Origin: an uncultured Chloroflexia bacterium | Lineage (GTDB): Bacteria > Chloroflexota > Anaerolineae > CG2-30-64-16 | Reading direction: 5' to 3' | DNA: 64,000 bases | Assembly: GCA_963774265.1 (NCBI GenBank) | Contig: CAVZDU010000003.1 | Location: forward strand, 448,001-512,000 | Shown here: positions 2,582-59,992 of the stretch, one piece after another | How the letters are laid out: each line of letters opens with the position of its first letter | Position numbering within the stretch: the first letter of the stretch is position 1 | Translations under genes and position numbers: made by a program | The notes under the pieces: generated by a model | Seen by the model: the letters and a program-made list of their open reading frames with translations, nothing else | Told to the model about the DNA's origin: nothing | Databases searched by the model: none

Positions 2582-4096
2582 ATGAATGCATCCCCAGGTA
2601 AAGTCCTGCTGGAAATGAAGGGCATCGGCAAAACCTTCCCCGGCGTCAAGGCGTTGGAAGGCGTCAATCTCACCGTCCGGGAAGGCCAGGTCCATGCTCT
2701 GTTGGGTGAGAACGGGGCCGGCAAGTCGACCCTGATCAAGATTCTGTCCGGCGCCTATACGAAGGACGAAGGCCAGATCTTCTTCGAAGGGCAAGCCGGT
2801 TGAGATTCGCGGGCCCGCACGATGCCCAGGCGTTGGGTATCTCGACGATCTATCAGGAGTTCAACCTGGCCCGCGATCTGACCGTCGCCGAGAATATCTT
2901 TCTGGGCCACCTGCCCAGAAAAGGCGTCGACGGTCGATTGGGCTACGGTCAAGGCACGCTCGCAGGAGATCCTGGACACTCTGGGCGTCACCTTTTCCGT
3001 GGATGCGCCTGACCGCAACGCTTTCGGTGGCTGAACAGCAGTTGGTCGAGATTGCCAAATCGCTGAACCGCAAGACGCGCATCCTCATCATGGACGAGCC
3101 GTCGGCCGTGCTGGGCGAAAAAGACCTCGAAAAGCTGTTTCAGGTGGTCCGCTCGCTCCAGGCGCAGGGCATTGGCATCATCTACATCTCCCACCGTCTG
3201 AAGGAGATCTTCGAGCTGGCCGATGAGGTCACGGTCCTCAAAGATGGGCGCTATGTTGACACCCGGAGCGTCTCTGAAGTGACGATGGACGATCTGGTCA
3301 AGCTGATGATCGGGCGCGACCTGAAGGATGTCTATCCCAAGCGGAGCCTGACGCCCAGCGATGTCCTGCTGGAGGTCAACAATGTCTCCCAGACCAAGCT
3401 CGTGCACGATATTTCCTTCCAACTGCACGCCGGGCGAGATCGTCGGCTTTGCCGGCATCGTCGGCTCCGGGCGGACCGAGCTGGCGCGGGCCATCTTCGG
3501 CGCAGACCCATTCACCGGCGAGATGCGCATCTCCGGGCAAGCCGTATAAGCCGCACTCCCCGGCGGATGCGATCCAGCCACGGGGTGGCGCTGGTGACCG
3601 AGGATCGCAAGGCCCAGGGACTCTTCCTCAAGTTGAACGTCTGGCCATCAACACCACGATCTCGGGCTTGAAGCAATTGTGCCGGTTGGGCGTGATCCAA
3701 CTGGGCCAAGGAACTCAGCCTGGTCAAGCAGATGATCAAGGACTTGAGCATCAAGACGCCAGGCCCCAACTTTCATGGTGGTCAACATGAGCGGCGGCAA
3801 CCAGCAGAAGGTCGTCCTGGCCCGCTGGCTCAGCATCGGCACGCGCATCTTCATCCTGGACGAACCGACCCGCGGCATCGACGTGGGCAGCAAGTCTGAG
3901 ATCTACCAGATCATGGATGGATCTGACCAAGAAGGGCGTGGGGATCATCATGATCTCATCGGAGCTGCCCGAAGTCCTGGGCATGAGCGATCGCATCATG
4001 GTCATGCGCCAGGGCACGATCGTGAAGGAGTTGTCGCGAGCCGAGGCCAGTGAAGAGGCGATCATGAAGTACGCGGTGGGATCCGAGGCCGCTTGA
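2582..4096 (+). CDS. sugar ABC transporter ATP-binding protein (RbsA-type, two NBDs), frameshifted
   Basis: [10 protein letters not shown] Walker [15 protein letters not shown] and [12 protein letters not shown]. Confidence 0.9.
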
Positions 4097-4124
4097 TCTT
4101 GGCCGCAACAAGGAGGCGCTAACC

Positions 4125-4797
4125 ATGGCAGTGATTACGATTTCCAGAGAGCTGGGCAGTGGCGGCTTTGACATCGCCCAGCAGGTGGCGAAGAGTCTGG
4201 GCTATGAGTTCGTGGACAAGCGCACGATCCGATGGCATCTTCCGGCAGTACGGGCTGACCAAATTCGACGATTTGTACAACTCGGCGCCGAGCATCCTGG
4301 ACCTCATCAATGCGGACAATCTGCTGATCGTCTCGATGTTGAACGAGATTCTGGAGGCGCTGGCCAAACGCGGCAACGTCGTGATTCTGGGCCGGGCCGG
4401 CTTCGCTGTCCTGGGCGAGTATGCGGATGTGCTGAATGTGCACATCCAGGCTCCCTTCTCGGAGCGGGTGCAGCGGGTGATGGCCAGGGAAGGCCTGACC
4501 GATCTCGCAGCCAGCCGAGGAGCGGGTGCGACGAGGACGACAACGTGCACCGCAAATATGTCCAGAGGTTCTATAACAAGCAGTGGGATGATCCGTCCAA
4601 CTTCGATCTGGTCCTCGACTACGGGCTCGCTGTCCAGCGGACGAGGCCGTGAAACAGATCGTGGAAGCGGCCCGAGCCTTGACCAAAAGGCGCAGGCAAG
4701 GATGCGGTCACGACCGCATCGACTTCAGGTCGATCCTGTTCTGGCGGATGCCGTCGCCAAAACGATGGCCGGTCGGATAGCACAGGCGCCTGCGTAG
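4125..4797 (+). CDS. cytidylate kinase-like family protein, frameshifted
   Basis: MAVITISRELGSGG start, GNVVILGRAG, and YVQRFY..WDDPSNFDLVLD typical of Cytidylate_kin2. Confidence 0.75.
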
Positions 4798-5029
4798 GCG
4801 CGTGGACGGAGTAGGGTGAGGTTCTTCACGGTCCGCGGGCCGGATGGCGAAAAACTCGAATCATGGCCTCTGTGAGCCGAACCGACCCGCGGCCTTGACG
4901 TGAGCTGTTAGTCGGGGTCGTGCTTTCTCGACGTTATCAGAATCTGCAGTGGGCAGGCTGGAGGCCTCGGCCGGTCCTGTTCACTGCAGCATCCGGTCTC
5001 TTTGGAAAAAGCAGGGGGTACGCGAGCCA

Positions 5030-6487
5030 ATGATCCATTGCACGCTGGGCATCGACATGGGTACGTCGGGCGTTAAAGCCGCACTCCTTGACCTGGACAC
5101 GTTCAAGCTGATCACTTTGGCCATGCAGGGCTACGACAACGCGCCCGAACAATCCTCGGAGATGCTGTGGCAAGCGACCGCTGCCACCGTTCGCGAGGCC
5201 GTCACCGGGATCGATCCGCGTGCCATCCGGGGCATCAGCTTCTCGGGCCAGATGCACGGGACCGTCATGTACGATGCACAGGGCGAGGTCATCGAGCCAA
5301 TCATCAATTGGCAAGACAAGCGCTGCGATATTCCCCTCGGGCGGTACGGTAACCGGACCACGATCGAAGTGATGATGGCCCTCCTGGCCGGCGCCGAGTT
5401 TGACGACCTGGGCATCGACCTCCTGCCGAGCGGCTACCTCAGCGCAACGCTGTTCTATATCAAGGAAAACGACCCTGCGCTATTCGAGCGGATTTGCCAG
5501 GCCGTTCTGCCCGGGGATTTCATCCGCGGGCAGCTGCTGGGCGCCTCCGATCGCGCCTCCGGTCGCGCCACCGATCCGACCAACGCGTCTGGGACCGGCC
5601 TTTTCAACACCCGGCTCAATCGGTGGCACGGGAGCATCATCGCGAAACTCGGGCTGCCCCGGGAAATCCTGCCGGCCGTCCACGATAGCGCCGAAGTGGC
5701 GGGCGTGCTCCCTTCGGCCGTTGCGGAGGAGTTGAACCTGGCGCCGGGGACGCCCGTGGTCTACGGCGGCGGCGACAACCAGATGTCGCTGCTGGGCAAC
5801 GGGCTCGTCTCGAGCCGTTCGCCGGCCCTGATCAATATCGGCACCGGCGCGCAGGTGTCGCAGGTCACCTCCCAGTATGCCAGGAAGCCGGGCGTCGACA
5901 CTCGCAGCTATTTCAGCCGGTCATACGCTTTCGTCGGCCCGAGCCTGGGCGGAGGACGGAGTTACGCGCATCTGCACAGGGCGCTGCAGAGCCGCGAGGG
6001 GCGCGACATCGGATACCAGGAGATGGATGAGCTGGCTTCCAGAGTGCCAGTTGGCGCAGACGGGCTGGTGTTTCAAGTGACCGTACGTGGCGCGGCCGGC
6101 GGTCCCGAAGGCTTCGTCGGACATACGGAGTTGCAGGATGTGGGCCACCAGACCCGGGCGGTCATGGAGGGCGTGCTGCTGGATCTCTACCGGCTGCGTC
6201 CCCCCACATTGGCAGACGGGCCCGGGTTCATGGTGGGCGCGGGGAAAGGGTTGCAGAACAGCCGGGTCTGGGCGCAGATGGCCGCGGACGTGTTTGACTG
6301 CCCGATCAAGATCACCAACTTTGAAAATGCTGTTTGGGGCGCAGCAGTGATCGCGGCGGTGGGCGCCGGCGCGATCACTGACGTACGCGACGCGACTGCG
6401 ACGATCGAGTACAGCCGGGAGCTCTTGCCTGACCCGGCCAGTGCGGCGCAGTACCGAGACCTCATCGCTGAAAGGAAGGGTCCCTGA
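5030..6487 (+). CDS. FGGY-family carbohydrate kinase (sedoheptulokinase/xylulokinase-like)
   Basis: LGIDMGTSGVKA, SGQMHG, WQDKRC, GGGDNQ, NIGTG and RAVMEG. Confidence 0.85.
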   Translation: MIHCTLGIDMGTSGVKAALLDLDTFKLITLAMQGYDNAPEQSSEMLWQATAATVREAVTGIDPRAIRGISFSGQMHGTVMYDAQGEVIEPIINWQDKRCDIPLGRYGNRTTIEVMMALLAGAEFDDLGIDLLPSGYLSATLFYIKENDPALFERICQAVLPGDFIRGQLLGASDRASGRATDPTNASGTGLFNTRLNRWHGSIIAKLGLPREILPAVHDSAEVAGVLPSAVAEELNLAPGTPVVYGGGDNQMSLLGNGLVSSRSPALINIGTGAQVSQVTSQYARKPGVDTRSYFSRSYAFVGPSLGGGRSYAHLHRALQSREGRDIGYQEMDELASRVPVGADGLVFQVTVRGAAGGPEGFVGHTELQDVGHQTRAVMEGVLLDLYRLRPPTLADGPGFMVGAGKGLQNSRVWAQMAADVFDCPIKITNFENAVWGAAVIAAVGAGAITDVRDATATIEYSRELLPDPASAAQYRDLIAERKGP

Positions 6488-6488
6488 G

Positions 6489-7472
6489 ATGTTCGATGTG
6501 ATTGCCTGCGGCGAGCTCTTGATCGATTTCGTCTCGACTGAGTCTGGCGTAACGCTGGGCCAGGCGCCGGCATTCCAGAAAGCTCCCGGTGGCGCGCCTG
6601 CCAACGTCGCGGTGGGCGTCGCGCGGCTGGGATATCGGGCTGGCTTCCTCGGGCAGGTGGGCGATGACGACTTCGGGCACTTCCTGGCCGACACGATCGC
6701 GGTGGCCGGAGTGGACGTCGGTGGCTTGCGCTTTTCGCCCGAGGCCCGCACCGCACTGGCGTTCGTGTCCCTGCGCAACGACGGCGAGCGCAGCTTCATG
6801 TTCTACCGCCACCCAAGCGCGGACATGTTGTGGCGGCCTGAAGATGTGGACCGGGAGTACGTGGCGGGCACGCGCATCTTCCATCACGGCTCCATCTCGC
6901 TGATCAACGAGCCGAGCCGGAGCGCCACGCTGGCGGCGGTCGAGTATGCCCGCGAGGGTGGCGCGCTGATCTCGTACGATCCGAATCTGCGGCTGGCACT
7001 GTGGCCTTCGCCCGACGCGGCGCGGGCGGGGATCCTGGCGGCATGGCCGTTCGCCGACCTGATCAAGGTCAGCGAAGAGGAGCTGGAATTCCTCACCGGA
7101 GACCTGGACATCGAGCGCGCCGCGCGGTCTCTCTGGTCGCAGCGACTGCTGCTGTTGGTGGTGACGCGCGGGCCGGCCGGGTGCATGTACTTCACGCCGG
7201 AGGGCAGCGGTGTGGTGCCCGGCTTTGCGGTGCATCCAGTCGATACCACGGGCGCAGGAGATGGTTTCGTCGCCGGGCTCCTGGCCGGGCTCCTGGACTG
7301 CGGGCTGTCGCGGGATGCCGCCGACCTGGAGCGCGCCCTGCGTCTCGGGAACGCCATGGGCGCGCTGGCCACCACCCAAAAGGGCGCCATCCCGGCGCTG
7401 CCCACTCGCCAGGCGGTCGAGGCTTTTCTGCGGGAGGCAGCGCACGGGCAGGGGGATCAATGGGCAGATTGA
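6489..7472 (+). CDS. PfkB-family carbohydrate kinase (fructokinase-like)
   Basis: GELLIDF, PGGAPANVA, YDPNLR and DTTGAGDGF signatures. Confidence 0.9.
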   Translation: MFDVIACGELLIDFVSTESGVTLGQAPAFQKAPGGAPANVAVGVARLGYRAGFLGQVGDDDFGHFLADTIAVAGVDVGGLRFSPEARTALAFVSLRNDGERSFMFYRHPSADMLWRPEDVDREYVAGTRIFHHGSISLINEPSRSATLAAVEYAREGGALISYDPNLRLALWPSPDAARAGILAAWPFADLIKVSEEELEFLTGDLDIERAARSLWSQRLLLLVVTRGPAGCMYFTPEGSGVVPGFAVHPVDTTGAGDGFVAGLLAGLLDCGLSRDAADLERALRLGNAMGALATTQKGAIPALPTRQAVEAFLREAAHGQGDQWAD

Positions 7473-8543
7473 CCATCGCGGATGTTGCCAGAGAAGCAGG
7501 TGTCTCGACAGCGACGGTGTCGAACGTCATCAACAACACCCGCTTCGTGAGCGACGAAACTCGCCAGAAGGTCAACGACGCAATCGAAGCTCTGGGTTTT
7601 GTGCCGAGCGCGGTGGCGCGGAGCCTGGTTACCAACATCTCGCAGATCGCCGGCGTCATCGTCTCCGATATCACCAACCCCTTTTTTCCGGCCATGGTGC
7701 GGGGGATCGAAGATCAGACCCTCCCCTATCGTTACAGCATGGTCCTGGGCAACACCGATGAGGATCCGCTGCGCGAAGAGGAGCTTGTCCGTCTGATGAC
7801 GAGGCAGCGCGTCGACGGCCTCATCATCGCACCCACGGGTGTGCGTTGCGCACCGCTCCTGGCGCTGGCGGAATCGGGCGTTCCGATCGTCCAGCTCGAC
7901 CGCACCAGCCCAGGCTTGACCGCACCGCTGGTCGGCGTCAACAACGAAGAGGGCGCCTATCAGGCCGTGAGCTACCTGATCGGCCTGGGGCACCGACGGA
8001 TTGCCTGTCTGTTTGGCATCGAGGCAATCAGCACACAAGGTGAACGGCTCAAAGGCTGGAGGCGAGCCTTGCAGGAGGCGGATCTCCCGATCGACGAGGA
8101 CCTGATCGTGCGGGCAGATCCGCGTCTTCTACGGCACCTTGCCGGATGCCGCGGGTGCGATAGCTCCGGTCAGGCCTGCGCTGGCGCACGAGAAGCTGCC
8201 CGGTGTAGATGAGGCGCTGGGCGGTCTTTGGGAAGGTCCCCGGCCTCCCTCGGCAGTGTTCGCGCTGACGAATCAATTAGCCCTTAGCACGTTGTACGCC
8301 CTCAAGGCGCGTGGGCTAAGATTCCCGGAGGACATCTCGCTCGTCAGTTTCGATGACCCCGATTGGGCGCCGCTCTTTAGTCCCCCCCTGACTACTGTGC
8401 GCCAGCCCGCGTACCAACTCGGCGAGGCCGCCGCAGGCCTGTTGATGAGCCTGATCAACCACGAGCCGGCCGAGCCTCCTCCTCCCTTGCCGGTTGTCTT
8501 GATGAAAAGGGCGTCCAGCGGTCCACCGCCTTCGGGCGGGTGA
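7460..8543 (+). CDS. LacI-family transcriptional regulator, frameshifted near 8130
   Basis: TIADVAREAGVSTATVSNV HTH, DITNPFF, and PEDISLVSFDD..PPLTTVRQP in ORF 8139-8543. Confidence 0.9.
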
Positions 8544-8665
8544 AGTCACTGCGCCGAGGATGTCGTCTGCGCAGCGTCTCATCGCTTGGGCCCCCGCTCC
8601 AGTGAGTGAGCCGGCCGAGATCCAAGGTCGCAACCGGCCTTCTTGCGGCCCACAAGTCGACCTCC

Positions 8666-8693
8666 GACGTACTTCTGCGGGTAGAAGTACGTC
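8666..8693. terminator. stem-loop between the convergent LacI and primase genes
   Basis: 11-bp perfect inverted repeat GACGTACTTCT / AGAAGTACGTC with a 6-nt loop. Confidence 0.5.
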
Positions 8694-8758
8694 AAGCGCG
8701 TGGCGGAAGCGGCGCCATGATGGGTTGACGAACAGGAGAATTTACAAATCGCCTGCGC

Positions 8759-10940
8759 TCAATCATCGTCGCCGTCCACCTCCCGCACAAAGGACAACTC
8801 CCAGGGTTCCAGGCCTGCATAATCGTCCGCCTGCCCCGGGTTACCCCACGGGTCCCCCGCGTCCGGCGGCTCGGACTGGTGCACTGGTGCACCTGATTTC
8901 GGGGGGATAGACACACACACACTTCCCCTGGCCAGGTGGTCGGGATGCGGCAGCACCGGCCGGTCCGCGGGCATCGGGTCGCCGATGGCATAGCGCGCGG
9001 GCTGCCTCTCCCGCGTCTCAAGATTGACCAGGTACCCGTCATGGATGGCCCGCAGCGCGCGGCGGCCGGCCGCCGACTTGTCCAGCCCCAGGGCATTGGC
9101 CAGTTGGGCCCGGCTCACCTCGGCCGGCTTGTTCGCGGCCCTGGCCTGCCCGATCAGCTGCGCCACGGCTTCAACCGTTTCCCGCGTGGTCGCGTTCACC
9201 GCGGCCTGGACCGTGTCGCCGATCACGTCCGCGACCGTCTCATAGACCGCGCGGTAGTCCTCCGGCGTTGCGATGATCCGGCCGCCCTCGTCGCGGCCGC
9301 GCTGCGCCTGGTGCAGAATCGCGTGGCTGCGGATGAGATTCAGCACCGCCCCGAAATCACGGCGGAGGCGGACGGCCCGCACATCGGCCAGGCTGGTCAG
9401 GCGATCGGCGAAGGGAATGACCACCTCGCGGCAGCCGGCCAGCTCGAGCCAGGTCTGCAGCCCGTGCCAGGCTGAGAAGTCCGGCCGCGGAGGCTCGCGG
9501 CCCTTCGCGCGATCGGCCAGTGCCTGCAGAATCCCCGCGGTCTGTGTTGGGTCGTCGCGCACCGTCACCGAGAACATGCGGGTTTCGTTTTCAGGGTGCA
9601 GGCTCGCGCCGGTGGTCGTGACGATCAGTCCCGTCGGCCCGGCGCGCTCGATCAGTTTCGACTTAAGCCCATCCGCAGTCTTCTCCACGGTCTCATAGCG
9701 GATGCAACCCTCTGAAAGCAGGGTGCGCATCAGATAGGTGCCAAAGTCGGAGGTCAGGCCCGCGGCCTCGTACAGCACCAGGTGGCGATGGGCCAACGGC
9801 TCGTTGCTGTAGGCTAACGACCGCTCAGACATGGACGACAGTGCATAGAACGCGTTGGGCGGGAAGGCCCGGAGCACGGTCTCGACCGTGAAGGACTTGC
9901 CGCCCGACGACGGCCCCTTGACGACGACGGAGACCGGCCGCTTCAGGAGGCGCGAGGTGACGGCCAGGTAGAGCAGCCGCGCGGTGCGTTCCTCGCCCAC
10001 CAGCCCCAGGCTGTTGCACAGCCCGGTCAACTCGGCCAGGATATCGGGGGAACGGAGCAGCGCGGCAGCCTGTTGTTTGGCCTGGCCGGCCTCCGCATGC
10101 AGGGCTTCGGCCCGGAGCTCGCGCCACGGCCGGGCAGAGGCCCTGAGCCGGTCCACCAGCGCGGGCACATCATCGCCGGCCAGGTGGCAGTCGCTGATGT
10201 CTTTGCGGCCCTCGGGCGGGGTGATGACAAGGCAATCGGGGAGCGACTCGCCCACCTTCTCAGCGAAGGCCGCGCCGCCCCCGTCGCTTTCCCGCCAGGC
10301 ATACACCGTCAGTCCGTCCAGATAGCGCGCCCACTCCGGTTTCCAGGTGGCCGCGCCGGGGATGCCCAGCGCCGGGATGCCGTGAAGCCAGAAGGTCTGG
10401 GCGTCACTCTCCCCCTCGCACAGGATAACATACGGGGCGCTCCGATCCAGCCGCCAGAGCCCATACGGTTGGAATCTTGGCGCCCCTGCGCCACCTGAAG
10501 CGGTTCTCGCCGGTCAGCGCCACGCGCAACCGGACGCCGGTCTCGGTCCCGGCCGCGTCATAGTAGGGCATTTTCAGGTAGGGCTTGCCCAGGCTGTGGG
10601 CGGTCTGCAGGCCGAGCGCATCCAGAAAGTCCAGGGGCAGCCCCTTGACCCGGGCATAGTTCTCCAGGGTAGGGGGAAGGTATGTGTGTGTAGTACCCCC
10701 GCGTTCCAGTTGCACCAGTGCACCAGTCAAGTGCGCGGCCAGGTCACGGAGACCGCCCGACTTCCCGCAGGCGAAGCACTTGTAGCCCGCGGCCGAAACC
10801 GAGAAGTTCTGCGCGTGGGTGTCATGGTGGAATGGGCACAGCGCCCAATACTCGCCCTTCCGGTCCGGGAAGCGGCCGTCCGGCGACCCGCCCCGGTCCA
10901 ACTTCGGCAGGATCACCTCAAGCAGGCTATCGGAGTTCAC
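8759..10940 (-). CDS. phage/plasmid-type primase-helicase: CHC2 Zn finger + TOPRIM + P-loop ATPase + C-terminal wHTH; one frameshift near 10470
   Basis: CPFHHD..YKCFACG zinc finger (ORF 10404-11114); ILCEGESD..GIPG and KDISD TOPRIM motifs; VVKGPSSGGKS Walker A and LVLYEA (ORF 8759-10306); AQLANALGLDKSAAGRR HTH-like end; GTG start at 10940 with GGAGG upstream. Confidence 0.8.
8874..8929 (+). repeat. iteron-like site A inside the 3' end of the primase gene (inverted copy of 10671-10728)
   Basis: GACTGGTGCACTGGTGCA followed by a G-run, an (AC)n tract and CTTCCCCT. Confidence 0.75.
10671..10728 (-). repeat. iteron-like site B inside the 5' part of the primase gene (inverted copy of 8874-8929)
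   Basis: Reverse complement reads GACTGGTGCACTGGTGCA (18/18 identical to site A), then a G-run, (AC)n and CCTTCCCCCT. Confidence 0.75.
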
Positions 10941-11143
10941 CGGCCCCATCCTCCGGGTCCGGTCGCCCGCGGTAGCTGGCGGTCTCGGGCCGCTCGAACC
11001 AGGCGCCGGCCTCCACCGCGGCCTTGCGCAGAACGACCCGGATCGCGTCGGATTGCGTCCGTTCGAGCTTGCGCGCCGAGCGCGTCGATCATGCGCCGTT
11101 CTTCTTCCGAGCACTTGAACGTGAACGAATCTACTCGCCTCAT
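10937..11143 (-). CDS. small ribbon-helix-helix (CopG-like) DNA-binding protein, probably with one indel
   Basis: MRRVDSFTFKCSEEERRMIDAL continues in the shifted frame as ARKLERTQSDAIRVVLRKAA (beta-helix-helix pattern); abuts or overlaps the primase start. Confidence 0.6.
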   Translation of the reverse strand: MRRVDSFTFKCSEEERRMIDALGAQARTDAIRRDPGRSAQGRGGGRRLVRAARDRQLPRATGPGGWGR

Positions 11144-11201
11144 AGAACCCCCTTCGCTGCGATGCTAAAGGGAGTCTACTCCGGTCGAAACGGCATCATT
11201 C

Positions 11202-11227
11202 CGAACTTCGATTCGAACTTCGGATCG
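11202..11227. promoter_or_regulatory. tandem 12-bp repeats resembling LexA (GAAC-N4-GTTC) boxes
   Basis: CGAAC-TTCG-ATTCG at 11202-11215 and CGAAC-TTCG-GATCG at 11214-11227, upstream of the RHH-primase operon. Confidence 0.45.
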
Positions 11228-11231
11228 ACTT

Positions 11232-12020
11232 TCAGTCTTCGGTGTCGTCCCGTAGATGTTCAGGCCACAACTCGGTAAACTCGGCCCAGGAGATCGGCTT
11301 GCGCGTTTGCCAGAGATGGGCGACACGCTTGGGAATCCACACGGTGACGGTTTCGTAGGTCAGGCCTTCGTCCTGCCAGGCAGTTGAGAATGGGAGCCTC
11401 ACGCCGGCCTGGCGTTTCTCCCACATCGCACGCATCTTGATCCGCGAGTCACGGTAGGGCCCGCGCCTCCGCGTTACCTCTTCCGAGCGCAAGGCGGCCG
11501 GCACCTGATCGGAAGCCACGTCCCCCTCCGCATCGCCGAACGCCAGATCCAGGCTTTCCTTCACGCGTTCCTTGCGTTCCGTTTCGTAGGTCTGCCAGAC
11601 CGGCCCGATCGCGGGATAGTGTGCCTGCAACTCCTTCAGCAGGCTCACGAAAATGTTCAGCACGGGCAGAAGCTGCTCGGAGCAGCTCGCCCTCACGTAA
11701 GTCTCGCGACCCAGTGCGGCGAACCGGAACCGCATCACCGGCCCCAGGTGCTCTATCTTTGGCTCATATCTCTCAGTCACGACCTCCGGCGCCCAGTCCG
11801 CCGGGATGGAAACAGTCGTTCTCCGGACTGCCGCCACCACAATCTCGACACGCACAACCGGCACAGCGCGGTGGCTCACCTTGGGCGCTGACAGGAACAA
11901 CTCAACCTGATAGTCTTCCCTGTGACCGCCCACGGTCCGGGGCGGCAGCGCCTCCATGAACCAGGCTTCCACGGCGTAAACGTCGTCCGGAATCGTGAAG
12001 TCGACCACCGTTGCTGCCAT
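11232..12020 (-). CDS. hypothetical protein, possible C-terminal DNA-binding domain
   Basis: Intact 262-aa ORF with a GGAGG RBS and its own TTGCGC-17-TATAAT promoter; basic helical C-terminus; family not recognised. Confidence 0.55.
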   Translation of the reverse strand: MAATVVDFTIPDDVYAVEAWFMEALPPRTVGGHREDYQVELFLSAPKVSHRAVPVVRVEIVVAAVRRTTVSIPADWAPEVVTERYEPKIEHLGPVMRFRFAALGRETYVRASCSEQLLPVLNIFVSLLKELQAHYPAIGPVWQTYETERKERVKESLDLAFGDAEGDVASDQVPAALRSEEVTRRRGPYRDSRIKMRAMWEKRQAGVRLPFSTAWQDEGLTYETVTVWIPKRVAHLWQTRKPISWAEFTELWPEHLRDDTED

Positions 12021-12052
12021 CGCTTTCCTCCCGCCGTGAGTTACGACAGGGC

Positions 12053-12147
12053 ATTATAGAATATGCGTTCGCTCGGCGCAAGCAGGGCCTCCGGATTTGA
12101 CATCCGGCCATCTGTTCTGTTATACTTCGCAGAAGAACAAAGATTCT
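12053..12147. promoter_or_regulatory. divergent sigma70 promoters with LexA-like boxes
   Basis: Leftward TTGCGC (12081-12076), 17 nt, TATAAT (12058-12053); rightward TTGACA (12097-12102), 18 nt, TATACT (12121-12126) with TG extension; AGAAT-ATGC-GTTCG at 12058-12071 and AGAAC-AAAG-ATTCT at 12134-12147. Confidence 0.7.
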
Positions 12148-12169
12148 ATTTCATCGAAGGAGACATCGC

Positions 12170-12583
12170 ATGGCAATGTCAAGCACGACTGTTTGGACCA
12201 GGGGGTTCAGCGAGAACCCCGCGGGCGCGCCCCTCAGGCTGAAGTCGATCATTGAAATGCTGGACCATATCGGCGACGAATGGGTGACCCTGCCCGGCGG
12301 CGCGCCTGCCGGGGACGCCGGCACAGGCAACCCCGCCGGGGGCGTCGACCAGGGTCGCGCCATGACCCGCCGGGAGCTCCTGGCACGCGTGCTGTGGACG
12401 CGCGCGATCATGGACGCCGACGGTGCGGCCACCAGGCTCATCATCGAGTACCTCGACGGCAAGCCGGATGAGTGGGGAGAAACAACCGGCGAGGCGCCAA
12501 GGTTCTGCGCCGACGACTACGCGCTGGCCGAGGCGCTGCTGCGGGAGGGCTCAGGCAGTGACGGCTCCGACTTCTCCCGATAA
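12170..12583 (+). CDS. putative terminase small subunit (DUF5681-like)
   Basis: N-terminal WTRGFSENPAGAP resembles the FxKGQSGNPxGRP motif; helical LARVLWTRAIM..ATRLIIEYLDGKP; overlaps the terminase large subunit. Confidence 0.6.
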   Translation: MAMSSTTVWTRGFSENPAGAPLRLKSIIEMLDHIGDEWVTLPGGAPAGDAGTGNPAGGVDQGRAMTRRELLARVLWTRAIMDADGAATRLIIEYLDGKPDEWGETTGEAPRFCADDYALAEALLREGSGSDGSDFSR

Positions 12584-14172
12584 GCGCCGGCGGCGCCACG
12601 TGCCGGGCGCGGGCGCAGCGGTCCTGCGGACTTCGCAAGTCTCACAGGGATCGTTCCCAATGCCCGGCGCGTCCCCGGATGGCGGCTCGTATGGGGATCA
12701 GGCCCTCTGGCTGGCCTGCTCGCGGTCGCCCGCCTGCTTCCTCGACCGCTTCGGCCATGTCTACGATCCGCTGGCGCGCGGCTGGACGCGCTTCCGCCTC
12801 TGGCCGGCCCAGGTGCGGGCCCTGGAGCAGCTCGCGTCCCACCGCCTGGCCGTCGTCCTCAAGGCGCGCCAGCTCGGCATGTCGTGGCTGACGGTCGGTT
12901 TTGGGCTCTGGCAGATGCTCTTCCGCCCCGAAGCCACCGTGCTGCTCTTCTCGCAGCGCGACGATGAGGCGGTCCACCTGTTGACCTTCCGGCTGCGCGG
13001 CATGTACGACCGCTTGCCGCCCCTCTTCCAGGCGCGCACGGTCGTGCGCGACAACGCCCACGAGCTCCGCCTGTCCAACGGCTCGGCCGCGCTGGCGTTC
13101 CCGACCACCGGCGGCCGCTCCTACACCGCCTCGCTGGCGATCGTGGATGAGGCCGATCACACCGACGACCTCGACGGGCTGCTCAATGCGGTCAAGCCGA
13201 CCATCGACGCCGGCGGCCGGCTGGTGCTCCTGTCCACCGTCGACAAGTCCCGGCCCGAGTCGCCGCTCAAGCGGATCTACCGGGCCGCCGTGGCCGGCGA
13301 GAATGACTATACGCCGATCTTCCTGCCCTGGCACGCGCACCCCGGCCGCAGCCCCGCCTGGTACGCCGAGCAGGCGCGCGACATCCAGGCACGCACCGGC
13401 GGGCTGGATGACCTGCACCAGGAGTACCCGGCCACCGACCTGGAAGCGCTGGCCCCGCGCGCTGGACAAGTTCTTCCCGGCAGAATGGCTGAACCGATGC
13501 TACGAGCCATTGAAGATTGAGGGAAATCTGCAATCTTCGATTTTCAATCTTCAATCACTCACCGTCCACGTGCCGCCGCAGCCCGACCACCACTACGTGA
13601 TCGGCGCGGACCCGGCGGAGGGCAACCCGCAGAGCGATGAGAGCGCCGCGGTGGTGCTGGACTATGCCACCGGCGAGCAGGTGGCGACGATGGGGCTGCG
13701 CTGCGATCCGGAGATGTTCGCCGTACACCTGGACCGCCTGGCCGCGGCCTATGCAAGCCTCGCCGAGCACGGCGGCGAAGCCGAAATCATGGTCGAGCGT
13801 AACAACCACGGCCATGCCGTGATCCTTGCGCTGCGCCAGCTCGGCGCACTGCTGCTGCGCGGGTTGGATGGCGAACGCGGCTGGACCACCACCGGCTCCA
13901 GCAAACACCAGCTGTTTGATTGGGCGGCGAAGGACATCCGCGAAGGCGGGCTGAAACTGCACGATGAGACCACCTACTGGCAGCTCACCTCGATCGACGG
14001 CGCCACGCTGGCTGCGCCGCCGGGGCAACACGACGACCGGGCGATGGCGTGCGTGCTGGCGCTCGAAGCCCTGCGCAGGGCGGGCGGACCGAACCGGGTC
14101 CTGTCGCTCATGATCCCGGGGGTGGACCCGATAGAGGTGGCCGACCGAACCCCGTGGGGAGAGAAGTGGTAG
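12558..14172 (+). CDS. phage terminase large subunit, one frameshift near 13460
   Basis: FRLWPAQ adenine-binding motif, VLKARQLGMSW Walker A, AIVDEA Walker B, LLSTV coupling motif, YVIGADPAEG and VERNNHG nuclease motifs, HDDRAMA end; start uncertain (GTG 12558 has GGAGG). Confidence 0.88.
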
Positions 14173-14316
14173 AGGGCGTTCTCAGTGCTGGGATAGTGTC
14201 ACATTTGTGATTTTATTGTAACTATGATAGGCTCTGCCGCGCAAAGGAGAATCGTCGGCGCGACGGCGGCTCGTGCAACCGCATAGCGCGTGTGTTACGC
14301 AGAAGGAGCGCTTGCG

Positions 14317-16377
14317 ATGTCATTGACGCGACGTGCCATTGGCTTCCGGGCCGTGGCTGCGGTGCTGGTTGTCGCGGCCCTGTGTGTCACCGCCTGCTCC
14401 GCGCCCGCCACTCCTGTGCCATCCACACCAACACCGCGCGACTACTGGCCAACGGCCGGCTGGCAAACCGCGCCCGCCGGCCAGCACGGCTTGGACGAGG
14501 CGAAACTGGCGGCGCTCGAGCCGGAGATTGCTGCGGAATTGCCGTTCCTCAACAGTCTGCTGATCGTCCGTGACGGGCGTCTTGTGTACGAAACTTACTC
14601 AAACGGTCAGGACGCTGCGTCGCTGAACGAAATCCGGTCGGTGACCAAGAGCGTCACGTCGATGCTGGCCGGTATCGCGCAGGCACGCGGGGAGTTGGGT
14701 GGGCCGGACGTATCTTTGTCTCAGGTTGCGCCGACGCTTTTTGCCGGCTCCCAACACGCCGATAAGCAGAAGCTGACCCTACGCGAACTGCTCATGATGC
14801 GCTCTGGCGTGCAGTGGGATGACATCACCGCGGAGAAGTTGATCGCCGCCAACGGGGTACCTGCCTACCTGCAGCAGGACATTGTCGGTGTTGCCTTGGA
14901 TCAGCCCATGGTCCATAAGCCCGGAACCACCTGGAACTACAGCACGCTCGACACGCAGCTGGCCGCTGCGCTGCTCGAAAGCGCGACCGGACGGTCCTTG
15001 AAGGAGTATGCAGCCGAACGCCTTTTCGCACCGTTGGGCATCAGCACCTTTGACTGGCAAAGCGACCGTGTCGGCCATACGGTGGGCGGCGGCCAACTGC
15101 GCCTCACGGCGCGCGACATGGCAAAACTGGGCTACCTGTATCTGAACCGCGGCACGTGGGATGGGCGGCAGCTCGTCCCGCCCGACTGGGTCCGGCAGAC
15201 CACCACGCCCCAGGCGACCGGCGTCTATTCTGCGACCGGCCAGACGATACCGATCGATTGGTACGGGATGGGTTGGTGGACCTGGAAACCGCAGCTTTTC
15301 GGCGGCCAGCGCGCGATTGCCGCGCGGGGCTATGGCGGGCAAGGCATCATCTTGCTCCCGGATCAGGACATGATCATTGTAACGACCGCCGATTCGGTCG
15401 TGGCGCCCGAGCAAGCGAGTGCCCAGGACTCCCGAGTCTACGACCTGGTCAAAGATCGTGTGATACCGGCAATTGCCGACCTGCGTCCGCCCGATCCGTT
15501 CTGGGCGGTTCCGGCCTCGGCGTCGCCCCCGCACCCAGCTCTCTACCTGGCCGGCGCGGACGGCCGCGGCCAGCGCAGCATTTTGCAGGACCCGGAGTAC
15601 GGTTTCTGGGGTCCGTCATGGTCGCCTGACGGCAAGCAGATCGTGTTTTCCCGCATCATCCCTGCCGTGGAAATGCCGGGCAACCCTGTCGCCGAGCTGT
15701 TTATCGCCGACGCCGACGGCAAGAACGTGCGGCAGTTGACGAAGAGCGGTCGCAACAACTACCTGGTGGCCTGGGCGCCAGATGGACGCGCGCTGGCCTA
15801 CCTTTCCGGCAGTGGCGACGCAGCGGAAATCTACGCGAAGGATATCGAGAGCGGCCCGGAAACCCGGCTGACAACCAACTCAGCCCAGGAATACGGCATC
15901 ACCTGGTCGCCGGATGGGCAGAAGATCGCGTTCGGGACGAAGCGCGACGGTGATTGGGGCATCTACACGATGAATTCCGACGGCACGGGCCAGCAGCCTC
16001 TGCCCACTCCCGCCGCCGGCAATTCGCCCGCTTGGTCGCCGGACGGCCGCCACATTGCCTTTATGTCGGAGCGTAACGGCGATGCTGAGATATTCGTGAT
16101 GGACGCCGACGGTGGCAACCAGCGCCTCGTGCTCGGGGGTGATGGGTGGGATTATCTGCCGGCCTGGTCACCGGATGGCAGGCGCATTGCATTCTCGTCG
16201 ACGCGCGGCGGCGACGCCGCAGTCTACGTTGCGGCGGCCGATGGCAGCGGCGTTGCCAGGGTCAGCAGTCGTGACCTCGTCGCAGAATTCGAATCCTGGT
16301 CACCTGATGCGACACGGCTGGTATTTCACGCGACTCCGAAACCGAAGGGCGGCCTTTTCGGATTGTTCGGCCGCTGA
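14317..16377 (+). CDS. lipoprotein: serine hydrolase (class C beta-lactamase fold) fused to a TolB-like PD40 beta-propeller
   Basis: Lipobox VTAC, SVTK catalytic motif, WNYS, ARDMAKLG, ARGYGGQ, then six WSPDG-type repeats. Confidence 0.85.
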   Translation: MSLTRRAIGFRAVAAVLVVAALCVTACSAPATPVPSTPTPRDYWPTAGWQTAPAGQHGLDEAKLAALEPEIAAELPFLNSLLIVRDGRLVYETYSNGQDAASLNEIRSVTKSVTSMLAGIAQARGELGGPDVSLSQVAPTLFAGSQHADKQKLTLRELLMMRSGVQWDDITAEKLIAANGVPAYLQQDIVGVALDQPMVHKPGTTWNYSTLDTQLAAALLESATGRSLKEYAAERLFAPLGISTFDWQSDRVGHTVGGGQLRLTARDMAKLGYLYLNRGTWDGRQLVPPDWVRQTTTPQATGVYSATGQTIPIDWYGMGWWTWKPQLFGGQRAIAARGYGGQGIILLPDQDMIIVTTADSVVAPEQASAQDSRVYDLVKDRVIPAIADLRPPDPFWAVPASASPPHPALYLAGADGRGQRSILQDPEYGFWGPSWSPDGKQIVFSRIIPAVEMPGNPVAELFIADADGKNVRQLTKSGRNNYLVAWAPDGRALAYLSGSGDAAEIYAKDIESGPETRLTTNSAQEYGITWSPDGQKIAFGTKRDGDWGIYTMNSDGTGQQPLPTPAAGNSPAWSPDGRHIAFMSERNGDAEIFVMDADGGNQRLVLGGDGWDYLPAWSPDGRRIAFSSTRGGDAAVYVAAADGSGVARVSSRDLVAEFESWSPDATRLVFHATPKPKGGLFGLFGR

Positions 16378-16418
16378 ACAGGGGGATGGCCCCGGTACTC
16401 GCAAGGAAGATCGACACG

Positions 16419-19378
16419 ATGCCTGACATCTTTGTAGGACGTGAACGAGAACTGCGGGCGCTGGCGGGTTTTCTCGAGCGCACGCTGGCGGGACAGGCCC
16501 AGGTCGCCTTTGTCGCGGGCGAAGCCGGTGTCGGGCAAATCCTCTCTCGTCGACGAGTTCGTGCGCCGCGCCGAGGAGGCGAACCCAGACGTCATCGCGG
16601 CCACCGGCGAGTGCAACGCGCAGACCGGCGCGGGCGATCCGTACCTGCCGTTTCGCCAGGTGCTGGCCGAACTCACCGGCGCCGGCGACTCGAAACGGAC
16701 GGGCGGCGGGTTCGCCGCGACCAATGCCTCGCGCCTCAAGGAGTTCGTGCGCGTCTCGGGCGAGACCCTGCTCTCGGTCGGCCCGGACCTGATCGGGGTT
16801 TTTGTCCCCGGCGCGGCGCTCCTGGCCAAGCTCGCGACCACCGTCGCCAAGCAGAGCAAGCTGGCCGACACGTTGGCCGAGCGGGTGAAGGCCGGCCGGG
16901 GCGGCGCCGCCGACCCGTCCCTGGACCAAGAGAGGATCTTCGAGCAGTACGCGCAGGTGTTGGCCGCCCTCAGCCGGCAGCGGCCGCTCATCCTGATCCT
17001 CGACGACCTCCACTGGGCGGACAGCGCCTCGCTGAGTCTGCTGTTCCACCTCCAGCGTCAACTGGCCGGACAGCCGCGTGCTGATCGTGGGCACCTATCG
17101 CCCCGACGACATCGCATTAGGCCGTATTTCGGCGACATCGGGACGAGTCGAGCGCCATCCGTTCGAGCCCATCCTCAACGAGATCAAGCGGTATGCGGGC
17201 GATGTGGTGATTGACCTCGGCGCCGCGCAGATCGATGAGGGCCGGGCGCTCGTCGACGCGCTGGTGGATGCCGAGCCTAACCGGCTCGACGCGGGCTTCC
17301 GCCAGGAGTTGTATGCTCGCACCGAAGGCCACCCGCTCTTCACGGTCGAACTACTGCGCACCCTCGAGGAGCGCGGCGACCTGATCAAAGATGCCGGCGG
17401 GCGTTGGGTGCAAGCTGCATCGCTGGATTGGGAGACCCTGCCCGCCCGCGTGGAAGGTGTGATTGCGGAACGACTTGCCCGGCTGACGGACGAAGCGCGC
17501 GAGACGTTGACCGTCGGCAGCGTGATGGGTCGCGAGTTCGCCGCCCAGGTCATCGCCCAGGTGCAGGATGCGCCGGAGCGCGAGGTGGTCAAGCTGCTCG
17601 CACGCGATTTGGAGAATCGGCATCACCTGGTGTCGGAGACGGGCGAAGTGCGTATCGGCAAACGTTTTCTGTCCTGGTATCGCTTTGCGCACGCGCTGTT
17701 CCAGCAATACCTCTACGATGAGTTGAGCGCGGGTGAGCGCCGCCTGTTGCACGGTGATGTCGGCAGGGTGCTCGAGACCTGGTATGCGGATCGCACCGGC
17801 GAGATTTCGGCGCAGCTGGCGCAGCATTTTCAGGAGGCGGGCGAGGATGAGAAGGCGGTCGCGTATCTGATCCAGGCGGGCGACGCCGCGTTCGGGGCCT
17901 ACGCTCAAGCCGAAGCGGCAGCTTATTACTCGCGCGCACTCGAGCTGGAGCGGTCGGGCGCGGCCACGGACGCCCAACACCTACACCTCTACACGCGGCG
18001 CGGCCGTGCGCTGGAACTATCGGAGCACTACGACCTGGCGTTGGCGAACTATGAAGAGATGCAGGCGTTGGCGCAGGCGCGTCGCGATCGCAGCCTCGAG
18101 TTGGAGGCGCTCATGTTGCGCGCGCTCGCCTACGCTGTCGGGTCGCGCGTGTGGGACTTGGACAAAGCGCAGGCCCTGGCACTCGATGCGCTCGCGCTGG
18201 CAGGTGACCTGGGCGATCGTGCCGCCGAAGCCAGGGTTCATTGGATTCTGCTCCTGGTCAATCGCTTCGGCAACGAGGGCGCAGCGAAAGCGGTCGAGTA
18301 CGGCGAGCGATCGCTGGCGCTGGCGCGCGAATTCGGGCCGAAGCAGCAGCTGGCGTTCACACTGAAGGATCTGGCGGTTGCATACGTCATGGTCTCGCGC
18401 TTCGCTGAGGCGCGGGCCATTTTGCCTGAAGCGATCAGCCTCTGGCGCGAGTTGGACAACAAGCCGATGCTGGCCGAAGCCCTTGGTGGGCAAGCCGCCC
18501 AGAGTTTTGGCTCTGGCGACTTCGACGAGGCCGTCCATGCGGGTGAAGAATCTTATGCGCTCAATCAAAGTATCCGCAATCGCTTCGGGCTGGTGATCAC
18601 CGCGAGCTTTGGCTGTTTGGCGTATGAGGAGCTTGGTCAGATGGACATGGCGATTCGGCGAGCCCAGGAGGCGGTCGCCATCGGTGAGGAACTGGGTCTC
18701 CGTGCGGGGCCGCATTGGGCGGTGCTTGTCGAACTGGCAGCCATGGTTGGCTTCTTGGGCGATTTCGCGCGGGCCATCGAGTACGCCGAGCGTGCGATCG
18801 CGACGAGCGCCCCTGAAATACCCGCTCGGGTGATGTATCCGAAAGCGGTTCTGGCCAGTCTGTATCTGCAACGGGGTCAGCGCGCCGAGGCGGAAGCGTT
18901 GCTGGCGTCCGCTGAGGCCATGCCGGTTGAAGGCTTCCTGGAAGCCACTGGTGCTGTGTCCGCTCAACCTGTGTTCGCGCACGCCGAACTTGCGCTCGCG
19001 CAAAACGATCCGGAGCGCGCGCTGACGCTGATGGACGATGTGATCGAGTCGGTGGGCCGCATCGGAACTCTGGTCCTATTGCCGCCAGCACACCATTTGC
19101 GGGCCAAGGCGCTGTGGGCGCTCGGTCGCCCAGACGAAGCACGCGCGGTGCTGCAGGATGCGCGCGTCCGGGCCGAGGCGATGCAGGCGCGTTATCGCCT
19201 GTTGCCGATCCTCATGACCCTGCGCGAGTTGGAGCTCGAGCTCGGTCGCCCGGCGGAGGCGGAGGCCGTCCGCATCGAAGCGCGGGAGGTTGCCGCGTAC
19301 ATCGCGGAGCACTCCCCGGACGATTTGCGCCCATTGTTTCTCAGCTTGCCGGCGGTGCGCGCTGTGATGGGCGCCTAA
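16419..19378 (+). CDS. STAND-class ATPase (AAA_16) with TPR repeats, frameshifted
   Basis: FVGREREL, GEAGVGKS, LILDDLHWAD, TEGHPLF, YRFAHAL and long TPR-like helices. Confidence 0.85.
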
Positions 19379-38900: not shown

Positions 38901-39122
38901 TCGATACGGATATCCGGGTACTCGACGTCGTGCGACTTCAGTGCCTGCTCCAAGCGATCGCGCATGGCTGTGCCTCCTTTTTTGTGCGCCCTCAGTATAC
39001 CCCCGATTGCCCCTGATGGCTCACAAACGTCACGAGAGAAGACCGGTCGCGAGCCATTGTGCTGTTATGACGATTGTGGTATCCTAACTCATGAGAATGT
39101 CACTTGGTGCAGGAGTTGTGCA

Positions 39123-39490
39123 ATGTCTGAATTGGCAGCCGATTACCAGACGGTTGTCGGACGCTTGGGAGTGCTAGAAAACGAGCTGCGGCAGTTGCGC
39201 GATCTGGTGACAGCCAAGTCCCAATCGGTATCCCCGTCGACTGCGGCCGATCACCTATATATCACGCAGGTACAGAGTATCTTGGGTGGCGAGCCCATCA
39301 TCAAGGGAACCCGAACGCCAGTGCGGGCAGTGGTGGAGCACTGGAAATTCGGTGATGCACCTGAAGAAATCGTCCGCAAGCTGCCGCACTTGCGCTTGGC
39401 GGAAGTCTTCGATGCGTTAGCTATTACGACGACCACCGCGCCGAAGTCGAGCGTTTGATCGCCCTAAACCGAGTCGCAGCCGATGGCTGA
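39123..39490 (+). CDS. DUF433 antitoxin, indel near 39420
   Basis: ILGGEPIIKGTRTPV..EEIVRKLPHLRLAEVFDALA, continuing as YYDDHRAEV in the shifted frame. Confidence 0.85.
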
Positions 39491-39857
39491 ACGCGCCGAC
39501 CAGGAGTTGGAGGCGCTCTACGTGCACCTTTACTGCGACGAAGATGTGTCTGCCGGCATCGTCGAAAACATGCTCCAGCGCGGCTTTGATGTGCTGAGCG
39601 CCCGTGAAGCTAATCGCTTACACCTGGATGACGACGCGCAACTGGCTTTCGCAGTAGCCACCCAACGCGCCCTGTTCACCCACAACCGATTCGATTTCGA
39701 ACAGAGGCACAGCCAATATCTGGCAGAAGGACGTCAACACTACGGTATTATCCTGGCGCGACGTCGTCCAAGCGATTCAGATGTTGTTGCCAGGCTGTTG
39801 ACTCTGCTCAACTCGATCACAAGGGACGAAATGGTCAACCAACTCCGCTACATTTGA
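39483..39857 (+). CDS. DUF5615 PIN-like toxin (VapC45 type)
   Basis: LYCDEDV, DDAQLAFA, THNRFDF and HYGIIL; overlaps the DUF433 gene. Confidence 0.85.
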   Translation: MAERADQELEALYVHLYCDEDVSAGIVENMLQRGFDVLSAREANRLHLDDDAQLAFAVATQRALFTHNRFDFEQRHSQYLAEGRQHYGIILARRRPSDSDVVARLLTLLNSITRDEMVNQLRYI

Positions 39858-39872
39858 ACATCCCAAAGTTCG

Positions 39873-40045
39873 TTACAACCGCCAATTATCCACCGGTGAC
39901 GCCTTCTGGTGCGCCCTGGCGCAGTCGGTCTGCGGGATGCGGGCGTAGCGCTTCACCATCTCGATATCGGAATGCCCCAGCAGCGCCTGCAGCGTGAACA
40001 GGTCGCCCTCGTTGCGCAGATAGGTGATGGCGAAGGTGTGGCGGG
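39873..40045 (-). pseudogene. C-terminal remnant of a tyrosine recombinase
   Basis: [45 protein letters not shown]-stop; N-terminal part absent. Confidence 0.85.
39956..39982 (+). repeat. 27-bp direct repeat, copy 1 (inside the integrase remnant)
   Basis: CCATCTCGATATCGGAATGCCCCAGCA, identical to 44034-44060. Confidence 0.85.
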
Positions 40046-40090
40046 ATGTGCGCTGAGGGCAGATATGCGACCACGAGGAGTGGGAGTGCG

Positions 40091-52446: not shown

Positions 52447-52725
<279 letters not shown>

Positions 52726-59803: not shown

Positions 59804-59857
59804 AAACCTCCCAGGTCTCAGGCCAACCAACGGTTGGCACGACCTGGGAGGTTTTTT
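59804..59857 (+). terminator. nested hairpin after tRNA-Arg (terminator / REP-like)
   Basis: AAACCTCCCAGGTC...GACCTGGGAGGTTT (14-bp stem) enclosing GCCAACC/GGTTGGC, followed by a T-run. Confidence 0.75.
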
Positions 59858-59890
59858 GCTGCAACACTGCCTGCGCCCCCCACTGTTCGA

Positions 59891-59920
59891 ATCATAGCAC
59901 AGGCCCGCGCACTTTGGCAA
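59891..59920 (-). promoter_or_regulatory. leftward promoter, candidate rel promoter
   Basis: Minus strand TTGCCA, 18 nt, TATGAT with TG extension. Confidence 0.5.
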
Positions 59921-59992
59921 CCCCGCGAAAAAGGGCCGGGCTGCGCTCCTGGGCGGTCTAGCGATACAGGCATTGTCCGTGCCTTTACAAAA

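Follow-up and report, generated by a model that had tools for sequence, protein, structure and literature searches.

The satellite P4 is capsid-less, and its alpha protein unites primase, NTPase/helicase and a C-terminal DNA-binding domain in one polypeptide. P4 uses the terminase of its helper at a cos site and possesses int, sid, psu and delta. The core genes of PICIs (phage-inducible chromosomal islands) are listed in the available text of PMC10085698, and capsid-forming PICIs (cf-PICIs) are described there as carrying both terS and terL (PMC10085698; 10.1101/2022.09.08.507074). PICMIs (phage-inducible chromosomal minimalist islands; PMC10803314) and VEIMEs (virion encapsidated integrative mobile elements; PMC9618062) are presented, in the text available, as minimalist marine satellites packaged as concatemers, and some VEIMEs carry terS and primase/helicases (PMC9618062). 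In the accessible parts of PMC10085698, PMC9618062 and PMC12822802 (mycobacterial satellites), satellites have either terS only or a whole capsid kit together with terL. No satellite family with terS and terL but no head genes was found in these parts of the literature, and the supplements might list variants. Here, we analyzed a 64,000-nt stretch of DNA from an uncultured Chloroflexia bacterium (the window; G000:C3:448001-512000), in which an earlier reading of the sequence (the original prediction) had pointed out a 5.4-kb island with a primase-helicase gene, a terS-like gene and terL. We found that this terS-terL pair belongs to a lineage of constrained terminases with no portal gene beside them. 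We give an even chance to the reading that the locus is a compact, capsid-less, mobile or formerly mobile phage satellite (a "hitcher"), which would bring a whole terminase to the procapsid of a helper.

The terS-terL pair and its portal-less relatives

Coordinates refer to the window unless a contig or locus is named. The island is divergent: the genes for the primase-helicase, a ribbon-helix-helix (RHH) regulator and an orphan protein are on the (-) strand, and the terS-like gene and terL are on the (+) strand. A sugar-kinase/LacI operon flanks it on one side and a beta-lactamase/PD40 gene on the other, and its GC content is similar to, and continuous with, that of the neighbouring sequence. 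The gene list, order and coordinates of the original prediction agreed with the positions of the open reading frames (ORFs) and with the Pfam and PHROG matches.

The terS-like gene (12170-12583, +) encodes a DUF5681-type protein of 137 aa. Its DUF5681 score was 18.4 bits, below the cut-off of 27.5, and the family was detected above the cut-off in the terS homologues of loci L012 and L041. In portal-less and portal-linked loci alike, the terS-like gene is always directly upstream of terL. The TerS structure model was unusable for a fold search (predicted local distance difference test, pLDDT, 60.8).

The terL gene (12660-14172, +) is of the T4 gp17 type, with ATPase and RNase-H-like nuclease domains, and 2 nt are missing near 13463. 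PHROG TerL families matched both halves, and the read-through TerL (503 aa) matched the ATPase structures of T4 gp17 in the PDB (E 7.8e-7). No Pfam model detected the window TerL. The blocks KARQLGMSW, IVDEAD, VIGADPAEG, VERNNHGHA and HDDRA are conserved with six relatives. Sequence comparison thus points to a large terminase of the T4 gp17 type, with ATPase and nuclease domains and conserved acidic residues. A low-GC palindrome of 57 nt (13504-13560) lies in frame within the variable linker that joins the two domains. It resembles repetitive extragenic palindromes (REP) or miniature inverted-repeat transposable elements (MITE). Dozens of 30-48-nt copies with 80-97% identity were found in other genomes of the genus, and few in the source genome. 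It therefore appears to be a REP/MITE-like repeat that is tolerated within the coding linker.

As had been predicted, no portal gene follows 14172; however, terL is not the single clean ORF that had been described, since the frame of 12423-13520 encodes the ATPase half and another frame, that of 13147-14172, the nuclease half. Portal, capsid, adaptor and tail genes were not detected in the window by the PHROG and Pfam scans. When 15 head-module proteins were compared by tblastn with the whole 5.5-Mb, 84%-complete assembly, no match was obtained. Profile searches of the source genome with PF05065, phrog_10963 and phrog_4523 also gave no match, and the phrog_10963 search is weak, because its control matched 0 of 14 reference genomes. 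Thus, the unlinked portal/capsid clusters envisaged in the original prediction were not found with these 15 proteins and three family models. The absence of a portal depends on the sensitivity of PHROG, Pfam and tblastn, and since ORFs were selected with a filter on GC content at third codon positions (GC3), low-GC genes could escape. Throughout, the material consisted of metagenome-assembled genomes (MAGs) and metagenome contigs, and several loci are short.

Among 36 further genomes from the family of the source genome, 14 had a TerL homologue (the same tally at E 1e-40), and none was detected in 24 genomes that represent 24 other families of the class. From Anaerolineales genomes and metagenomes, nine portal-less terS-terL loci were obtained, of which eight are independent: the window, L012, L013 (=L021), L020, L058, L091, L092 and L095 (=L096). 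In these loci, terL is followed by ordinary cellular genes, for example those for an oxidoreductase, a CDGSH protein, phosphofructokinase, a hydrolase or an enolase-family protein, or by a replication gene. The exception is L012, where a 372-aa unassigned ORF comes directly after terL. L013 and L021 are from separate assemblies and are 99.3% identical over 12.6 kb spanning both host junctions. In another 13 loci (L014-L019, L022-L024, L026, L045, L057 and L097), terS-terL is followed by a portal gene of the phrog_10963 type, a protease/major-capsid fusion, an SU10-type adaptor and then host genes. In L046, a phage from IMG/VR, a portal of a different family follows terL.

Phylogenetic rows were labelled by context before the trees were built; three rows inside the clade described below and two outside it had too little flank for a label. 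In a maximum-likelihood tree of 21 rows, five portal-less rows and one unlabelled row formed a clade with support of 99/97. In the tree of 28 rows, all nine portal-less rows formed a clade with the three unlabelled ones (Shimodaira-Hasegawa-like approximate likelihood-ratio test, SH-aLRT, 99), and the portal-linked rows were outside it (13/13). These 13 portal-linked terL loci are its sister group. At the DNA level, the window resembles its closest relatives only in terS-terL, from ~12112 to ~14127, and the flanks differ. Every independent portal-less locus places the pair in a different chromosomal neighbourhood. Of the six genomes that have a portal-less pair, three (G007, G030 and G033) also possess a portal-linked head module. 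The IMG/VR scan matched only portal-linked or distant relatives, and a scan of genome contigs detected no loci beyond those already collected.

Selection on the pair was estimated as the pairwise ratio of nonsynonymous to synonymous substitution (dN/dS) against the window by the Nei-Gojobori method; the strong GC3 bias probably inflates these ratios. For the ATPase domain of TerL, dN/dS was 0.16-0.24 against the four closest relatives (L020, L059, L013 and L012) and 0.38 against L058. The values were 0.26-0.37 for the nuclease domain and 0.37-0.45 for TerS. Thus, the dN/dS analysis of terL proposed in the original prediction did not reveal relaxed selection. Intact terL ORFs of 594-624 aa were present in short-read assemblies of relatives. 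Furthermore, the C-terminal tail IPPxD...D..GW was observed in 7 of 10 portal-less or unlabelled TerL rows and in 11 of 13 portal-linked rows, and the rows without it are divergent or cut short near the end. In well-studied phages, the C-terminus of TerL contacts the portal. Since the tail is kept, this sequence pattern suggests that portal docking may still be under selection.

Several features of the relatives were observed besides. A ~9-kb portal-linked module is conserved in L014, L015, L024, L057, L045, L097 and others (for example, L057:398-8999). Its order is terS, terL, portal, a small protein, the protease/major-capsid fusion, a 138-aa protein, the SU10-type adaptor and 254- and 218-aa proteins, and its flanks are host genes such as that for a Na/Ca exchanger. 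Replication, lysis and tail genes were not recognised in the module, which looks like a capsid-forming island or a unit resembling a gene transfer agent (GTA) of Anaerolineales. In two metagenome contigs (L091:107-1659 and L098:93-2169), two terS-like copies 1.2-1.7 kb apart precede one terL, with a DUF433 gene between the copies in L091. In L013, repeats surround terS-terL (8935-9198, 9561-9680 and 11287-11348): three tandem 88-nt units with a 62-nt hairpin come before terS, the same hairpin comes after the terL stop, and the terS-terL spacer is filled by a second, GC-rich palindrome family.

Frame breaks and probable assembly errors

Three island genes, namely terL, the primase-helicase gene and the RHH gene, are frame-broken in the source assembly (G000; 5.5 Mb, 10 contigs, 63% GC, completeness 84%). 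The original prediction had stated that the catalytic motifs are kept; this holds for the blocks shared with the relatives, but the three breaks had been overlooked. At the terL site near 13463, the alignment gives APR(A/M)VDKFF in intact relatives, and in the window APRA and DKFF stand on the two sides of the break, 2 nt short. The primase-helicase gene shifts by +1 near 10466-10479. Since the Toprim motif (PYGLWRL...YVILCEGESD) precedes the start of the 515-aa ORF and shares its frame, the primase and the helicase are one shifted gene. Arithmetic on the match coordinates shows that four paralogues in the same genome are single-frame across the break point. The RHH ORF reads through only when one base near 11078 is removed. 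For frame read-through, the codes GTAT=V and CAAG=Q were used; ATTC=I and CCAA=P were dropped, as each matched second sites.

Host genes around the island also look broken, namely those for LacI, a sugar-binding protein, an ABC ATPase and a MalT-like regulator, and frame-changing genes are found in the window at 623-1332, 3003-3671, 7472-8543 and 16441-19378. Both rpoB (G000 C7:822-4053) and rpoC (C7:4204-8551) change frame. In the sister genome G001, other genes of the sugar operon are broken and LacI is whole. The sites were then compared with short-read contigs of low depth that cover the stretch patchily; they come from a single study, whose three soil runs contain only 7-8% of the words. 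At 11078, two near-identical contigs are one letter shorter (depth 7.53 of 11.4), and one 224-nt record at the RHH gene differs by 2 letters and 1 gap. At 13463, a related contig has 2 extra letters exactly there. None of the listed contigs bridges the island edges, where cover is scant. Contig joints such as 8920>10627 and 12880>14032 are short-sided and of low depth and were left uninterpreted, and a genome-wide fragmentation index based on GC3 was uninformative.

Because rpoB and rpoC are broken too and the short reads correct the RHH gene, the frame breaks of the island most likely arose as indel errors in a long-read assembly rather than by decay. Few contigs and yet a completeness of 84% is the pattern expected for uncorrected long-read indels. 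By these comparisons, the assembly-error reading is shown at the RHH site and suggested at the terL site, and it may also hold at the primase site. Uncorrected indels in long-read MAGs may thus disguise live elements as dead.

Control region, replication gene and neighbouring features

The divergent control region (12021-12169) contains a rightward promoter-like site and ribosome-binding sites for the first gene of each side. The near-consensus promoter reported earlier was found as TTGACA-18-TATACT at 12097-12126 (+), upstream of the 137-aa gene, with 11/12 matches and an extended -10. It is one of two promoter-like sites, against a shuffle mean of 0.5. A perfect TATAAT is present on the (-) strand near 12053-12058, and the ribosome-binding sites of the original prediction were seen as GGAGG-type sequences.

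The primase-helicase gene (8759-10949, -; ~729 codons when read through) appears in the assembly as ORFs of 515 aa (8759-10306) and 236 aa (10404-11114). The protein has a CHC2 Zn-ribbon (PF01807, E 1e-6), a Toprim primase core of the DnaG/T7 gp4 type and the P-loop NTPase motif GPSSGGKS, whose superfamily was not assigned, and it matches PHROG primase and primase/helicase families. Residues 121-261 match a generic DnaG-like domain model of PADLOC. The structure model of the helicase half was too poor for a fold search (pLDDT 54.9, P-loop region <50). The source genome possesses four more copies with 34-65% identity (G000:C2:454093-456195, C6:129799-131846, C7:93492-95553 and C10:191729-193705). 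Among PDB entries, a profile of these paralogues matched Toprim proteins, the Zn domain of DnaG and the primase of T7 gp4, and the paralogue C-termini are winged-helix-like (MarR_2/HTH_24). None of the four has an adjoining terminase. Since the C2 copy is 2.6 kb from a tyrosine integrase, the replication gene belongs to a family of integrative elements. The arms of a 55-nt inverted repeat (8874-8928, left; 10674-10728, right) lie within the reading frame, and each arm holds a tandem ACTGGTGC. Two closer copies flank a YdjC-like gene (G000:C1:188469-188525 and 189344-189392). The repeat may serve as an origin or as iterons, or it may be a REP element.

The RHH-like regulator (10927-11143, -) is ~70 aa long after removal of one base and overlaps the primase start. 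The uncorrected ORF (10937-11143, -) had no PHROG match, and the RHH identity of the corrected one is plausible from its sequence pattern. The orphan (11232-12020, -; 262 aa; function unassigned) had no Pfam or PHROG match, an Atlas search was blank, and a search of 5.8 billion proteins returned only the query itself. The sole relative detected is a 382-aa ORF adjoining terS-terL of L020, with 31% identity over 174 aa. In a PADLOC scan of 21 proteins, neither TerL nor TerS nor the orphan had a match.

Of the eight independent loci, four have replication genes next to the pair, and these are of unrelated families. The window has the DnaG-type primase-helicase, L095/L096 have Prim-Pol+D5_N+Pox_D5 directly after terL, L012 has HTH_36+IstB-like and ResIII helicase genes with a Gp49-type toxin nearby, and L013 has a DnaC-like ATPase.

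In agreement with the prediction that the edges lack attachment (att) repeats and a recombinase, the longest word common to both edges was 10 nt, a length of at least 10 being reached in 31 of 200 shuffles, so that no repeat above chance was detected. PF00589 was found only >25 kb from the island, the nearest matches being fragments at ~39.9 kb and ~51 kb. Serine recombinases were not found in the Pfam and PHROG scans of the module, and no genome-wide search was aimed at them. No tRNA occurs nearer than 52.6 kb, and Rfam gave no match up to E 0.1. G001 carries the sole orthologous flank in the genus. It matches 4944-8528 at 83%, stops at the LacI gene and diverges beyond. A close orthologue of the right flank was not found in the genus, and the insertion edges are not definable by an empty-site comparison.

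Other phage-related features were seen elsewhere in the source genome. In L042 (G000:C5:115000-134900), an island at ~3494-16690 carries two integrases, a serine one of 636 aa and a tyrosine one, together with an Arc-like repressor and an 810-aa protein, and a 251-aa ORF there has the TerL ATPase domain only (phrog_7579, E 5e-54). A lone DUF5681 terS-like gene (L041:9989-10453; G000:C1:~820497) is directly followed by an MFS transporter gene, with no terminase nearby. Further features of the far half of the window are a DUF433/DUF5615 pair and two AbiE-type toxin-antitoxin genes or pairs. Two fragments of tyrosine integrases are also found there, one of which is ~1 kb from tRNA-Pro (features at 38964-39857, 39873-40448, 44973-45803, 50692-51639, 52650-52725 and 59834-61542).

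Interpretation and comparison with described satellites

The simplest reading of these sequences would be a family of small elements selected to replicate and to enter the heads of others. The different neighbourhood at each locus, together with the G001 flank that ends at LacI, argues for movement rather than vertical fixation. A more specific proposal, which we hold tentatively and think somewhat less probable than its opposite, is that Anaerolineales have an undescribed class of capsid-less and integrase-less hitchers. These would consist of an invariant TerS+TerL core and interchangeable replication genes and would exploit the ~9-kb portal/capsid modules or the phages of their own bacterial family. 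As they would not excise, they may package themselves and their chromosomal flank in situ and so act as a dedicated platform for lateral transduction.

In such an element, TerS would recognise the element's own DNA, TerL would serve as motor and nuclease, and the primase-helicase, resembling P4 alpha, would initiate replication. The small RHH regulator would control the island, and the procapsids would come from another phage-like element, a hypothetical helper. Infection or induction of the helper would lift repression, and the primase-helicase would then amplify the island, starting at an origin within its own gene or close to it. TerS would bind a pac site within the island, and TerL would dock on the helper portal by the tail that matches those of the portal-linked relatives and fill the helper heads. 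The cargo might be island concatemers, if excision is assisted by the helper. Since neither integrase nor att is present, it might instead be the island with the rightward flanking chromosome, packaged in situ.

Several observations weigh against a working satellite. The nuclease domain and TerS, with dN/dS of 0.3-0.4, are under moderate constraint only. Replication genes adjoin the pair in only half of the independent loci; in L020 their place is taken by GmrSD and a type IIG restriction-modification gene, and in L058 HTH/Hfq-like ORFs are found. The 84%-complete source genome yielded no candidate helper head module, and IMG/VR has no close relative (75% or more). Integrase, excisionase and att were absent from every portal-less locus examined, and therefore spread between genomes is unexplained and the satellite life cycle is incomplete on paper. 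As for the frame breaks, only that of the RHH gene is contradicted by near-identical reads: another contig at the terL break (depth 2.6) shows no insertion, the primase break is spanned by none of the listed contigs, one of which stops at 10462, and terL of L058 is also broken, in an assembly of 550 contigs that is probably from short reads. The evidence is all computational, and mobility, induction, packaging and expression of the island are hypothetical.

Some of these points would also fit an inert relic, that is, a terS-terL pair and a replication gene left from a temperate phage by deletions on both sides and now decaying. Three frame breaks within 5.4 kb would be natural in such a remnant, as would the likewise broken terL of L058 and the failure to find integrase, att and structural genes. 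In lambda-like prophages, replication genes come before the terminase, and the order in the island agrees with this. The lone DUF5681 gene and the lone TerL-ATPase fragment elsewhere in the genome would then be further phage debris. However, the same assembly breaks the essential rpoB and rpoC, and near-identical short reads do not show the break in the RHH gene. Random decay would not predict that 9/9 portal-less loci fall into one TerL clade, nor that terL always ends against host genes, with an ATPase-domain dN/dS of 0.16-0.24 and intact ORFs of 594-624 aa elsewhere. The non-homologous replication genes of the loci fit an exchange of modules better than one shared deletion. The relaxed selection and the idiosyncratic, lineage-specific loss of a cryptic prophage were not observed. 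Since the portal-less lineage is monophyletic, constrained and located beside varied replicons, a single recent deletion cannot explain it; the recently deleted prophage that the original prediction had allowed for is thus disfavoured, and we regard a relic as doubtful.

The absence of integrase and att from every locus and the GC content like that of the neighbours would also suit a domesticated host module. This would be a fixed chromosomal terminase, with or without local over-replication, which might act as a satellite-like defence by interfering with the packaging of an invading phage, or in in-situ transduction through helper heads, similar to lateral transduction or a GTA. In line with a host function, L020 is beside GmrSD and a type IIG gene, L012 is near the Gp49-type toxin and ResIII helicase, and L013 and L021 have identical host junctions in two separate assemblies. 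However, PADLOC gave 0 matches for TerL, TerS and the orphan, the independent loci are in different neighbourhoods and the orthologous flank of the genus ends at LacI, and no heads to fill were found in the 84%-complete source genome. Domestication is therefore unlikely in our view. A mis-join of a phage fragment at about 8.7 and 14.2 kb could be suspected in an error-prone assembly whose edges are poorly covered by public contigs. Nevertheless, host-terL and host-replication junctions of the same kind exist in independent assemblies, the sequences of one assembly pair are 99.3% identical over 12.6 kb that include both junctions, GC is continuous and the contig is 617 kb long, so that an artefact is very improbable. 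As for the two explanations offered in the original prediction, an undescribed satellite that brings its complete terminase and a module that does not excise but amplifies and packages its surroundings, both are compatible with the findings, which do not separate them.

Compared with described systems, a capsid-less satellite of this kind would share with PICIs (e.g., the Staphylococcus aureus pathogenicity islands, SaPIs) the small island, a putative regulator, a primase/replicase of its own, a candidate small terminase for redirecting packaging and the use of helper capsids. The Zn-ribbon/Toprim/P-loop protein corresponds to the primase/replicase module of PICIs. For an alpA/merR/stl-type regulator, only the RHH-like ORF was seen, by pattern and with no family match. 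The window element differs from PICIs in that no integrase at the end, no flanking att and no capsid-morphogenesis gene were found, and in that it carries a full-length TerL, whereas PICIs have no large terminase or other structural genes. With cf-PICIs it shares both a terS-like gene and terL; however, cf-PICIs add capsid, head-tail adaptor, connector and integrase genes, none of which was found in the island, and no capsid, portal or adaptor gene was found in the genome, and the ~9-kb portal-linked modules of the relatives resemble cf-PICIs more than the window element does.

The layout of the primase-helicase appears to resemble that of P4 alpha; in contrast to P4, int, sid, psu and delta were not detected in the island, although no search was aimed at P4 genes. 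Like PICMIs and VEIMEs, the window element is very small and has no capsid-remodelling genes. Those satellites, as far as their available descriptions go, have integrases and presumably use the large terminase of the helper, whereas the island has TerL and no integrase was found in it. TerL resembles T4 gp17 in its ATPase domain, which aligns to the gp17 structures, and in its PHROG matches on both domains; it differs in that no portal gene comes after it and in the REP-like insert in the linker. A structural gene cluster as in a GTA, linked or unlinked, was not found in the 84%-complete genome, where the phrog_10963 search is weak. PADLOC does not assign the locus to a defence system, the primase matching only the generic DnaG-like domain.

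If the locus is indeed a satellite, it would be a first handle on the biology of phages, hosts and hitchers in Chloroflexota, which are abundant in digesters and soils, and the tools that find satellites would need wider search criteria. If it is packaged without excision, it would be a natural, dedicated starter of in-situ (lateral) transduction. Beside the satellites that borrow TerL and those that carry a whole capsid kit, it would represent a third strategy, in which only a complete packaging enzyme and a replicon are carried.

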